64,000 nucleotides of DNA from Candidatus Kuenenia stuttgartensis (GTDB taxonomy: Bacteria; Planctomycetota; UBA11346), in the NCBI GenBank assembly GCA_945876185.1, contig CAMCMZ010000003.1, forward strand, positions 15,454-79,453, given 5' to 3'. Position numbers and translations under genes: made by a program. The notes under the pieces are model-generated. The model did not search any database and was not told the origin of the DNA. It worked only from the letters and a program-made list of their open reading frames with translations. Positions 39,231 to 42,113 of this stretch are shown here, piece by piece. Within the stretch, counting starts at the first letter, position 1. Each line of letters opens with the position of its first letter.

Positions 39231-42113
39231 ATGGCCAAAACCAAACACGTCTTCTTCTATGGCGCCGGCAAAGCCGAAGCCAAAGGCGCAGACCTCACCA
39301 AAGACGTCCTCGGCGGCAAGGGCATCGGCCTGATGGAGATGACCTCCATCGGTCTTCCCGTCCCGGCCGGCTTCACCGTCTCCATCCCGACCTGCGCCGA
39401 ATACTACGAACTCGGCCGTCAGCTGCCCAAGGGCCTGGACCAGGAAGTCCTCGACGCCCTGACCAAGCTGGAAAAGTGTACCGGCAAGAAGCTGGGCGAC
39501 GCCGAGGATCCGCTCCTGGTGTCCGTCCGCTCCGGCGCCGCGCGCTCGATGCCGGGTATGCTCGAGACCATCCTGAACCTCGGCCTCAACGACCAGTCGG
39601 TCGAGGGCCTGGCCAAGGTGACCGGCAACGCCCGCTTCGCCTACGACAGCTACCGCCGCTTCATCCAGATGTTCTCGACCACGGCCATGGGCCTGTCGAA
39701 GGAACCGATGGAGCACATGCTGCACGAACTGAAGCACAAGCTCGGCGTGAAGAACGACCCCGAGATCCCCGCCGAAGCCCTCAAGGAACTCTGCCAGCAG
39801 TTCAAGGCGTTCTACAAGCAGAACAAAGGCGACGACTTCCCCCAGGATCCGCTGGAACAGCTCTGGGGCGCGATCAAGGCCGTGTTCGGTTCGTGGGAGG
39901 CTGAAAAGTCCGTCACCTACCGCCGCGTCGAAAAGATCACCGACCTCAAGGGCACCGCGGTCAACGTGGTCCAGATGGTGTTCGGCAACAAGGGCGACAC
40001 CTCGGGCACCGGCGTCTGCTTCACCCGCGACCCGAACTCGGGCGCCAATGAATTCTACGGCGACTGCCTGATCAACGCCCAGGGCGAGGACGTCGTCGCC
40101 GGCATCCGCACCCCGATGAAGCTGATCGAACTCGAGACCCGCCTGCCCAAGGCCTACGCCCAGCTCTGCGAAGTGCGCCAGACCCTGGAAGCGTACTACA
40201 AGGAAATGCAGGATCTCGAATTCACCATCGAGGACGAAGTCCTCTACATGCTCCAGTGCCGCACCGGCAAGCGCCTGCCCTCGGCCGCGTTCAAGATCGC
40301 GGTCGACATGGTGAACGAAGGCCTGATCACCAAGGAACAGGCGATCAGCCGCATCACCCCGGAACAGATCGAAGGCGTCTTCTACCCGATCATCGACAGC
40401 CAGAAGGTCGGCGCCGCCAAGCTCAAGGAACTGCTGGTCGGCAAGGGCATCGACGCGGTGCCCGGTTCAGCCTCCGGCAAGGTCGTATTCACCGCCGCTG
40501 AAGCCGAAGAAATGGCCAAGGCCGGCGAACGCGTGATCCTGGTCCGCAAAGAGACCTCGCCCGAAGACGTCGGCGGCATGCACGCCGCCCAGGGCATCCT
40601 CACCGCCACCGGCGGCAAGACGAGCCACGCGGCCGTCGTCGCGCGCGGCTGGGGCAAGTGCTGCATCGTCGGCGCAGAATCGCTGAACATCGACTACAAA
40701 GCCAAGTCCGTGGTCGTGAACGGCAAGACCATCCGCCAGGGCGACGAGATCACCCTCAACGGCACCACCGGCGAGTTCTTCCTCACCTCGCTCCCGCTCA
40801 AGAAGCCGGAACAGACGGAAGAGTTCCACACCCTGCTGACCTGGTGCGATGCGATCCGCACCCTGAAGGTCCGCACCAACGCCGACACGCCCTACGACAG
40901 CGAGAACGCGATCCGTCTCGGTGCCGAAGGCATCGGCCTGTGCCGCACCGAGCACATGTTCTTCGACACCGAGGAACGCCGCCTGGCCATCCAGGAGATG
41001 ATCGTCGCCGACAACGCGGAAACCCGCAAAAAGGCCCTGGCCAAGCTGCTGCCCTACCAGCGCGCCGACTTCGAAGGCATCTTCACCGCGATGGCCGGCA
41101 AGCCCGTCACCATCCGCCTGATCGACCCGCCCCTGCACGAGTTCACCCCCAAGGACGAAAAGGGCGTCGCCAAGCTCGCCGCCATCACCGGCCTCTCGCC
41201 CGAAGCCATCGTGCACCGCTGCGAACAGCTGCACGAGTCCAATCCAATGCTCGGCCACCGCGGCTGCCGCCTCGCGATCACCTATCCTGAAATCCTCGCG
41301 ATGCAGGTCACGGCGATCATCGAAGCCGCGATCACCGTGACCAAGAACGGTCTCGAAGTTCTGCCCGAGATCATGCATCCGCTCGTCATCGACCGGAAGG
41401 AACTGAAGATCCTCGAAGTCCAGACCCGCGCCATCGCCGACAAGCTGATCGCCGAGGCCGGGCTGAAGGGCAAGCTCAAGTACCTTGTCGGCACCATGAT
41501 CGAGATCCCGCGCGCCGCCCTGCTCGCGGACCAGATCGCCGAAGTCGCTGAATTCTTCAGCTTCGGCACCAACGACCTGACCCAGATGACCCTGGGCCTG
41601 TCGCGCGACGACGCGGGCCGCTTCCTGCCCGACTACGTCATGAGCGAAAAGGACGGCGGCAAGGCCATCTTCGGCGACGATCCGTTCCAGTCGCTCGACC
41701 AGAGCGGCGTCGGCGCCCTGGTGAAGATGGGCATCGAAAAGGGCCGCCAGACCAACCCGAAGCTCAAGGTCGGCATCTGCGGCGAACACGGCGGAGAAGC
41801 CAAGAGCGTCAAGTTCTGCCACCGCGTCGGCATGAACTACGTGTCGTGCTCGCCCTATCGCGTGCCCATCGCCCGCCTCGCCGCGGCCCAGGCCGTGATC
41901 GAAGGCAAGGCTGCCGCCCCGGCCGCCAAGAAGCCCGGTCGTCCGGCCAAGGCGGTCAAAGCGGCCAAGCCGACCAAGCCGGCGAAGGCAGTGAAAGCAG
42001 CGAAGGCCCCCGCCAAGCGCGGCCGCCCCGCGAAGGTGGCCAAGGCCGCCCCCGCCAAGCGCGGCCGCCCGGTCGCCAAGAAGGCGGCGTTCAAGTTCCT
42101 CGCTGGAAGGTGA
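39231..42113 (+). CDS. ppdK: Pyruvate, phosphate dikinase with C-terminal Lys/Ala-rich AT-hook tail
   Basis: LGGKG, LVSVRSGA..SMPGM, GGKTSHAAVVAR (phospho-His), GIGLCRTEHMF, GICGEHGG, YVSCSPYRVP. Confidence 0.97.
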   Translation: MAKTKHVFFYGAGKAEAKGADLTKDVLGGKGIGLMEMTSIGLPVPAGFTVSIPTCAEYYELGRQLPKGLDQEVLDALTKLEKCTGKKLGDAEDPLLVSVRSGAARSMPGMLETILNLGLNDQSVEGLAKVTGNARFAYDSYRRFIQMFSTTAMGLSKEPMEHMLHELKHKLGVKNDPEIPAEALKELCQQFKAFYKQNKGDDFPQDPLEQLWGAIKAVFGSWEAEKSVTYRRVEKITDLKGTAVNVVQMVFGNKGDTSGTGVCFTRDPNSGANEFYGDCLINAQGEDVVAGIRTPMKLIELETRLPKAYAQLCEVRQTLEAYYKEMQDLEFTIEDEVLYMLQCRTGKRLPSAAFKIAVDMVNEGLITKEQAISRITPEQIEGVFYPIIDSQKVGAAKLKELLVGKGIDAVPGSASGKVVFTAAEAEEMAKAGERVILVRKETSPEDVGGMHAAQGILTATGGKTSHAAVVARGWGKCCIVGAESLNIDYKAKSVVVNGKTIRQGDEITLNGTTGEFFLTSLPLKKPEQTEEFHTLLTWCDAIRTLKVRTNADTPYDSENAIRLGAEGIGLCRTEHMFFDTEERRLAIQEMIVADNAETRKKALAKLLPYQRADFEGIFTAMAGKPVTIRLIDPPLHEFTPKDEKGVAKLAAITGLSPEAIVHRCEQLHESNPMLGHRGCRLAITYPEILAMQVTAIIEAAITVTKNGLEVLPEIMHPLVIDRKELKILEVQTRAIADKLIAEAGLKGKLKYLVGTMIEIPRAALLADQIAEVAEFFSFGTNDLTQMTLGLSRDDAGRFLPDYVMSEKDGGKAIFGDDPFQSLDQSGVGALVKMGIEKGRQTNPKLKVGICGEHGGEAKSVKFCHRVGMNYVSCSPYRVPIARLAAAQAVIEGKAAAPAAKKPGRPAKAVKAAKPTKPAKAVKAAKAPAKRGRPAKVAKAAPAKRGRPVAKKAAFKFLAGR

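Follow-up and report, generated by a model that had tools for sequence, protein, structure and literature searches.

The window analysed here is a 64,000-nucleotide stretch of Planctomycetota DNA filed under Candidatus Kuenenia stuttgartensis, and its subject is a pyruvate phosphate dikinase (PPDK) gene, ppdk, whose product ends in a long tail rich in Lys, Ala and Pro. The source assembly (G000) is a metagenome-assembled genome (MAG) of 3.8 Mb and 66% GC, in 123 contigs and 82% complete. Upstream of ppdk lie dnaN and cca, a gene of the PolyA_pol family, and an intrinsic terminator follows it (Table 1). The open reading frame (ORF) scores 1268.4 bits against the equivalog model TIGR01828 (EC 2.7.9.1; cut-off 843.45), residues 5-890 covering model positions 2-865 of 865. 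The Pfam families PF01326 (PPDK_N), PF00391 (PEP-utilizers, mobile His domain) and PF02896 (PEP-utilizers_C) all exceed their cut-offs, giving the three-domain PPDK architecture of a nucleotide-binding domain, a mobile phospho-His domain and a TIM barrel for phosphoenolpyruvate (PEP) and pyruvate. The phospho-His motif TSHAAVVARG is intact at residues 464-473 and GICGEHGG at residues 848-855; both are recognised as catalytic, through their His and Cys, from the established Clostridium symbiosum enzyme. By these sequence features the ORF is a complete PPDK with intact catalytic motifs. Solved PPDK chains were compared from the PDB, and they stop at query residues 889-892, the exception being T. 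brucei 2x0s with a few non-basic extra residues.

As claimed in a first-pass annotation of this DNA, a Lys/Ala/Pro tail continues in frame after the PPDK C-terminus. It comprises 70 residues (891-960), is conserved in orthologs, and consists mainly of Ala (34%), Lys (24%), Pro (13%), Arg (9%) and Gly (7%), with an isoelectric point of 12 and a net charge of +22 versus −8 for the catalytic body. The proportion of Lys in the genome's long ORFs is 2.8%, so that the tail is 8.6-fold enriched, and the K:R ratio is 2.8 in the tail versus 0.36 proteome-wide. A comparable K/A/P-rich window of 30 residues occurs in only 6 stop-to-stop ORFs of the assembly. In an AlphaFold2 model built from a 32-sequence alignment, the TIM barrel is well modelled and residues 900-960 have predicted local distance difference test values of 33-38 without secondary structure; the tail is accordingly predicted to be intrinsically disordered. 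Dominated by Lys, Ala and Pro, strongly basic and predicted disordered, it is of the histone H1-like type, and composition and GRP cores together bear out the H1/HMGA-like character first ascribed to it. Searched alone against the PDB, the tail found no match even at E <= 10. Its codon usage resembles that of the gene body, as had been noted (G+C at third positions 0.86 versus 0.90, with AAG, GCC and CGC preferred in both). The terminator noted after the gene is likewise backed by a stable hairpin (Table 1), which a consensus terminator scanner missed because of its inner loop.

Table 1. Features of the ppdk locus, in window coordinates.
Feature	Position	Strand	Details and basis
parA	32877-33674		upstream of ppdk
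parB	ends 34650		upstream of ppdk, followed by two ORFs
AT-rich tract between parAB and dnaN	36000-36130	.	GC about 0.48 in 300-bp windows; the tract placed 3 kb upstream by the first-pass annotation
dnaN	36386-37513	+	Pfam; tblastn synteny across family f1
cca (PolyA_pol family; CCA-adding enzyme or poly(A) polymerase)	37708-38943	+	Pfam; tblastn synteny across family f1
ppdk ORF	39231-42113	+	960 aa; TGA stop at 42111-42113
PPDK catalytic body, residues 1-890	39231-41900	+	TIGR01828, Pfam domains, catalytic motifs
Predicted disordered polycationic tail, residues 891-960 (70 aa)	41901-42110	+	EGKAAAPAAKKPGRPAKAVKAAKPTKPAKAVKAAKAPAKRGRPAKVAKAAPAKRGRPVAKKAAFKFLAGR; composition, AlphaFold2, ortholog indels
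Hook 1, KPGRP in AKKPGRPAKA	41931-41945	+	degenerate, P replacing the first R; sequence
Tandem duplication yielding hooks 2 and 3	42006-42070	+	23-nt GCCCCCGCCAAGCGCGGCCGCCC at 42006 and 42048; Tandem Repeats Finder (TRF) arrays; alignment of G000 and G001
Hook 2, KRGRP in PAKRGRPAKV	42015-42029	+	RGRP core with Lys on both sides; sequence; identical context in G001
Hook 3, KRGRP in PAKRGRPVAKK	42057-42071	+	sequence
Conserved extreme C-terminus FKFLAGR (G001: FKFLSGRR)	42090-42110	+	akin to the ends LKAAKAR and LKALAAGR seen in relatives from the family
Intrinsic terminator	42144-42190	+	13-bp G+C-rich stem with inner hairpin, then UUUUC; hairpin 42144-42185, −37.6 kcal/mol, z = −5.25 versus shuffles

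Three GRP cores lie in the tail, exactly where the first-pass annotation had put its KPGRP and two KRGRP motifs. Shuffling of the tail gave an expectation of 0.05 GRP against the 3 observed. Over all fetched loci, PPDK tails of at least 30 residues contain 16 GRP against 0.34 expected, or 13 when the duplicate copy of the congener G001 is left out. A canonical AT-hook is defined as GRP with basic residues (Arg or Lys) within 1-5 positions on both sides (PMC4615771), and AKKPGRPAKA, PAKRGRPAKV and PAKRGRPVAKK all fit this definition. The duplicated copies that gave hooks 2 and 3 are spaced by 42 nt (14 codons), and G001 holds three such units. At the protein ends of the source genome, the only other Lys-flanked RGRP is that of a DUF7008 protein (...KKRGRPRKAQA). 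This protein (E = 1.8e-144) is encoded on the minus strand of contig C20, in an 814-aa frame that runs off the contig end, and it finishes in a textbook AT-hook, ...GGDAPKKRGRPRKAQA. We take DUF7008 to be a domain at the C-terminus of BREX/type IIG DNA methyltransferase-like enzymes, that is, of enzymes working on DNA.

Comparison with the congener G001 (contig CAZZJC010000037) bears on whether the tail is real. The PPDK of G001 is 95% identical, carries three PAKRGRPAK hooks and ends in AAFKFLSGRR. At the DNA level, indels of 12, 6, 3 and 6 nt separate the two tails, each of them in frame, and DNA similarity collapses straight after the stop codon. That the assembly is wrong, the frame has shifted or a stop codon has been lost, so that the real protein ends near residue 890, would be conceivable in a MAG as fragmented and incomplete as the source. 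However, the same in-frame tail is present in the independently assembled congener, such tails occur on hundreds of independently assembled PPDKs, the codon usage of the tail is that of the gene, and a terminator follows the annotated stop; the probability left to an artefact is next to nil. The tail is in frame and conserved in the genus, and it is neither chance nor artefact. The locus of the congener (L031, CAZZJC010000037.1), at 69% GC, encodes a PPDK that falls among those of Phycisphaerae-type and other Planctomycetota MAGs; the record title 'uncultured Candidatus Kuenenia sp.' is probably an automatic mis-assignment of the name. In G003 and some other genomes, a genome search had suggested that tail-like sequence ran on beyond stop codons. 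This was rejected: three-frame reading gave the Arg-rich noise of GC-rich DNA together with a terminator, and the true end in G003 is a short AKAKK.

The prevalence of basic tails was taken from the 80 closest PPDK loci among GTDB species (73-94% identity), which were picked by peptide patterns of the catalytic part only, and from representatives of the whole family at 50% identity; a tail-biased protein search was left out of the count. The first-pass annotation had named absence or lack of conservation in relatives as a reason to drop its reading, and the survey gives no such reason. A basic, Lys-rich C-terminal extension of net positive charge, 8-189 residues long, is present at all 79 of the readable loci among the 80. 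By record title these belong to Planctomycetota, Ignavibacteriota/Bacteroidota, Lentisphaerota (Victivallales), Spirochaetota, Omnitrophota and Elusimicrobiota, with one Bacillota MAG. In the tree these PPDKs form one clade (clade A; Shimodaira-Hasegawa-like approximate likelihood ratio test (SH-aLRT) support 100), inside which the source enzyme, whose C-terminus runs past LAAAQ, pairs with that of its congener. Clade A enzymes are 73-87% identical across at least six phyla. Of the 92 scorable representatives from the PPDK family as a whole, 64 extend by fewer than 10 residues past the catalytic end, and only 5 have a basic tail of at least 20 residues.

Among the sampled Planctomycetota, GRP cores are found in the genus of the source (g1) only. 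They recur in several spirochaete PPDK subclades and in two deeper-branching enzymes from Treponema and Rectinema. Spirochaete tails often have two hooks, a K(R/P)GRPA in the proximal part and, at the terminus, a strictly conserved KR(S/P)VGRPKGS(S/T)KK or KRPRGRPRGSKN(R/K), the latter of which we take to be almost the AT-hook II peptide of human HMGA1. Hook-bearing examples are the enzymes of Rectinema sp. (HAL94344.1; 45 contigs) and Treponema sp. (MDR2100995.1), and the octamer KPGRPAKA of hook 1 recurs in Rectinema PPDK tails, in a search biased by shared words. A Cys cluster within the basic tail was seen at three loci, L046 (Victivallales; ...EEAKCCCGKPSKKGKK), L067 (Omnitrophota; ...AKCCSGSSKIKGKK) and L011 (Planctomycetota G040; ...RKQKSSCGCCCSK), and these clusters recall metal-binding or lipidation-type motifs.

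The Planctomycetota family of the source (f1) contains three separate PPDK lineages in the tree: clade A, clade B, and a third pair (L017 and L018). Clade B enzymes are about 51% identical to those of clade A and are nested amid tail-less enzymes that belong to other families of Planctomycetota. All three lineages sit directly downstream of the same cca gene and have long tails. Tails of at least 20 residues are present in 15 of 18 genomes of the family, versus none of 10 genomes from other families in the phylum (Fisher p = 2e-5). A clade A enzyme (L004, from G010) and a clade B enzyme (L023, from G004), whose bodies are about 50% identical, have the same last 14 residues, KAAPKKALKAAKAR, and the last 45 nt of these two genes differ by 5 synonymous and 0 non-synonymous changes. 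This terminal peptide might serve for docking, or recombination might have preserved the tail. Because long tails occur in all three lineages and the terminal peptide is shared, the host lineage seems to require the tail irrespective of the PPDK body. The tail is under selection rather than drift, and it is a PPDK trait that spans the clade and has been gained repeatedly. Planctomycetota tail ends are also akin to each other (LKAAKAR, LKALAAGR, FKFLAGR and KAKAGR).

We propose, tentatively and with somewhat less than even confidence, that the PPDK tail tethers the enzyme by multivalent electrostatic contacts to nucleic acid, and most probably to the nucleoid, and that the hooks would add a preference for the AT minor groove. 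On this view a catalytically normal PPDK ends in an H1-like, predicted disordered Lys/Ala/Pro tail with three GRP cores. Each element has an experimental precedent among bacteria, in CarD and in the tails of AlgP, PhaF and Ku. Characterised bacterial PPDK is a homodimer, and a homodimer would present two tails and six hooks per enzyme. The Lys/Ala/Pro stretches may supply non-specific affinity for the backbone, and in genus g1 the RGRP hooks may add a preference for the minor groove of A/T tracts, which are rare in a genome of 66% GC. Catalysis itself should stay as it is. Binding of the tail would instead relocalise the enzyme and hold it on nucleic acid, which could be useful, for example, by regenerating ATP from AMP and pyrophosphate (PPi) where nucleic acids are made and tRNAs charged.

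Several observations weigh against such a nucleic acid tether. The Pfam AT_hook model (PF02178) reaches only 12.4 bits on the tail (E = 0.15), below its cut-off of 17.4 bits, which is weak evidence because the model is only 13 positions long. AT_hook is also the sole Pfam family found on the tail at E <= 1, the H1/HC2-type models (PF07382 and relatives) being unmatched; one relative (P0035) has a precomputed PF07382 match. Most relatives have Lys/Ala tails without hooks, many of just 8-20 residues. Because they are hook-less, the conserved property is positive charge, which would bind any polyanion, and AT-tract specificity cannot be the conserved function. Tail length correlates with the GC content of the locus (Spearman rho = 0.50, p = 2e-6, uncorrected for phylogeny), so that some of the Ala/Pro bulk may have arisen by GC-driven expansion. 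Pyruvate kinase was found in 23 of 26 relatives, the congener included, and a strict PPi-economy rationale is therefore weak; the same count ruled out PPDK as the sole route from PEP to pyruvate. The absence of pyruvate kinase from the source assembly is probably due to incompleteness.

To the same side of the balance belong precedents for other polyanions as targets. The tail could park PPDK on polyphosphate (polyP) granules or at the interface of polyP and nucleoid, or act as a tether to polyanions in general, a reading that we hold unlikely while giving it real weight. The polyphosphate kinase Ppk1 of Caulobacter crescentus needs a basic C-terminal tail of 22 residues (pI 11.8) for its localisation to polyP granules (PMC3806658), the H1-like KPAA protein AlgP localises to such granules and spaces them (PMC9239181), and T. 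cruzi histidine ammonia lyase has a Lys-rich C-terminus that binds polyP (PMC8561398). PPDK, moreover, handles PPi and inorganic phosphate, and the clade as a whole has kept charge rather than hooks. Yet the GRP cores are over-represented and conserved at tail ends in independent lineages, which pure electrostatics can hardly explain; no polyP-specific motif is known, and the substrate of PPDK is PPi rather than polyP. Binding to rRNA, tRNA or mRNA, which would put an enzyme making ATP from AMP and PPi near aminoacyl-tRNA synthetases and the translation machinery, appears improbable, though not negligibly so. RNA can be the preferred ligand of AT-hook variants: it is bound by extended hooks and by some canonical ones, and by the extended hooks about ten-fold more tightly than DNA (PMC4615771). 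The basic residues of the PPDK tail abut the GRP cores, however, which is the canonical and not the extended arrangement, and the protein contains no other RNA-binding domain or motif. Ribosomal proteins typically have Lys-rich tails, as S20 of the source genome does. AMP and PPi, the substrates of PPDK in the glycolytic direction, are products of tRNA charging, and the upstream neighbour in the conserved block is a gene of the tRNA nucleotidyltransferase family, although gene neighbourhood is weak evidence.

A neutral origin, in which a short ancestral KKK end ballooned by replication slippage in GC-rich genomes and both length and hooks are without specific function, would agree with the correlation between tail length and GC, with the duplication origin of hooks 2 and 3 and their different copy number in source and congener, with the conservation of nothing but tail composition across the clade, and with LeuC, which in this genus has also gained a tail of about 120 residues absent from relatives. 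We nevertheless regard it as improbable. Lys codons (AAG/AAA) oppose GC pressure, yet Lys is strongly enriched; few ORFs of the genome have such tracts; and among the 80 nearest relatives every readable locus has kept its tail. In one family three PPDK lineages have arrived at tails convergently, terminal peptides are conserved with synonymous change only, and net charge climbs with tail length. Still less probable, and in our view a slim chance, is a membrane tether in which the polybasic stretch and a terminal amphipathic FKFLAGR bind acidic phospholipids. The KKAAFKFLAGR end resembles what we take to be the membrane-targeting sequence of MinD (KGFLKRLFGG), an L/F-K-x-L/A...R end is kept across the PPDK lineages of the family, and Cys clusters lie beside the basic stretch in some relatives. 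Against this, most tails end in KKGKK, KKKK or GSSKK and have no hydrophobic face, AlphaFold2 predicts no terminal helix, and Ala/Pro-rich spacers and GRP cores are atypical of membrane anchors. A nucleic acid tether is the reading that we carry forward. A wider version of it, which we consider rather improbable, is that PPDK has repeatedly been made nucleic-acid-bound (at least in three lineages of this Planctomycetota family, in Treponema and Rectinema, and in other anaerobe phyla), its H1-like tail and, in some lineages, genuine HMGA-type hooks holding the dimer on the nucleoid or on RNA for local formation of ATP from AMP, PPi and PEP, with the enzyme of the genus biased to rare AT-rich sites such as the origin-proximal tract. 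AMP and PPi would then come from polymerases, nucleotidyltransferases and aminoacyl-tRNA synthetases, and the tail would amount to a spatial organisation of the pyrophosphate economy.

The first-pass annotation had also set ppdk beside a candidate replication origin, and this was upheld in part. The genes parA and parB, the AT-rich tract and dnaN lie just upstream, and by tblastn the order dnaN-cca-ppdk is kept throughout the family at every locus with a sufficiently long flank; the phylum's other families lack it. In the assembly 69 regions, the tract among them, are at <= 38% GC per 100 bp, and neither dnaA nor a skew switch was shown at the place. Because the dnaN-cca-ppdk block is conserved beside parAB, an origin-proximal position, which would give an abundant enzyme high gene dosage, is plausible. 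Several TTTCCGAC-like boxes lie at 35890-36100 (for example near 35938, 35959, 36021 and 36075), adjoining the AT-rich tract; dnaA is not adjacent to this region, which may be an origin with non-canonical boxes. Runs of at least 6 A/T occur at 0.84 per kb in the assembly. With runs at that density and so many comparable regions, a special pairing of the tail with the tract or origin was rejected, and the suggestion that the tail targets the upstream tract lacks support, most relatives being hook-less. Nor did any evidence emerge for the proposed coupling of carbon flux to replication or nucleoid condensation.

The dnaN-cca-ppdk block itself (window 36386-42113; loci L003-L045) holds ppdk of three distant lineages with about 50% identity between them, which suggests that ppdk was replaced in situ by horizontal transfer. 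On the other side lies an ORF of 767 residues (42378-44681, minus strand) that is convergent with ppdk. Pfam gave nothing for it at E <= 0.001, and tblastn matched it in none of the fetched loci of relatives, the congener included; synteny downstream of ppdk is therefore not conserved.

A second metabolic enzyme of the genus has a polycationic tail. LeuC, the large subunit of 3-isopropylmalate dehydratase (Aconitase family; contig C8, 46708-48477; L111), ends in a basic Lys/Ala/Pro/Arg tail of about 120 residues (...KPVRRALRRNGLK) that is common to the congener only, and about 20 other relatives from the family or phylum stop within a few residues of the catalytic domain. Lys/Ala/Pro-rich segments were also seen in ribosomal protein S20, a hemerythrin-domain protein and a 164-aa protein (contigs C6, C14 and C26). 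With PPDK, LeuC and a small ORF on C6, these make up the six K/A/P-rich ORFs of the assembly. A genome-wide habit of basic tails was rejected, given six ORFs only and a LeuC tail confined to the genus.

Full-text literature searches yielded no paper linking PPDK with AT-hooks or Lys-rich tails, in agreement with the earlier remark that PPDK is not known as a DNA-binding protein. The type of tail is known; its fusion to a central metabolic enzyme appears to be undescribed in the literature searched. The following are new: 1) AT-hooks on PPDK; 2) their independent recurrence in spirochaetes; 3) the convergence of three lineages on tails at dnaN-cca-ppdk; and 4) a conserved terminal peptide. Source databases name the tailed proteins just 'pyruvate, phosphate dikinase', and this plain annotation leaves the tail unremarked. 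A core glycolytic/gluconeogenic enzyme that makes ATP from AMP and PPi thus bears a chromatin-type tail, which is kept in several phyla and has hooks in two distant lineages. The trait is widespread and apparently unreported, and from its sequence we infer the function. The bacterial cytoplasm is usually regarded as well mixed for central metabolism. If the tail binds nucleoid, RNA or polyphosphate, it would offer a simple model for positioning metabolic enzymes without compartments, and, if our proposal is true, bacterial AT-hook proteins would extend beyond transcription factors.

The tailed enzyme may finally be set against known systems. With canonical solved PPDKs, namely those of Clostridium symbiosum (1KBL/1DIK), maize (1VBG) and Flaveria (5JVL), it shares the full three-domain architecture and the catalytic His and Cys motifs, aligning from residues 5-22 to 889-892 with E = 0; it differs in that their chains end where its tail starts. 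AT-hooks are described as rare in bacteria, and Myxococcus xanthus CarD uses four RGRP hooks to bind AT-rich DNA (PMC8156234). CarD likewise comes from a GC-rich genome and has a disordered C-terminal region with repeated RGRP hooks. Its family includes hook-bearing and H1-like Lys/Ala/Pro versions at the same position, mirroring genus g1 versus the rest of the PPDK clade, and the HMGA-type and H1-like domains are reported to be functionally equivalent (Garcia-Heras 2009, as cited in PMC8156234). CarD, however, is a transcription factor that binds RNA polymerase with its N-terminal domain and has an acidic stretch ahead of the hooks, whereas PPDK is an enzyme of central metabolism without an acidic region or a known role on DNA, for which DNA binding is predicted from sequence.

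Disordered H1-like Lys/Ala/Pro tails that bind DNA and/or polyphosphate or polyhydroxyalkanoate granules are also found on Pseudomonas AlgP and PhaF and on Mycobacterium smegmatis Ku, with DNA binding by the KPAA/PAKKA tails of all three (PMC9239181, PMC3553676). Those tails consist of regular repeats of 4-5 residues without GRP hooks and belong to structural or DNA-repair proteins, whereas the PPDK tail is irregular, bears hooks and is attached to an enzyme. Caulobacter Ppk1 resembles PPDK in being an enzyme of phosphate and energy metabolism with a short basic C-terminal tail, dispensable for the fold and required for localisation (PMC3806658); its tail differs in having 22 residues and no hooks, in targeting polyP granules, and in being experimentally established. 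HMGA1 and histone H1 offer parallels in composition and motif, with several GRP cores flanked by basic residues in a disordered chain and the K/A/P composition of the H1 C-terminal domain. HMGA is, by contrast, a free-standing chromatin protein with an acidic tail, and the similarity between the hooks of HMGA1 and those of PPDK likely reflects convergence rather than common descent.

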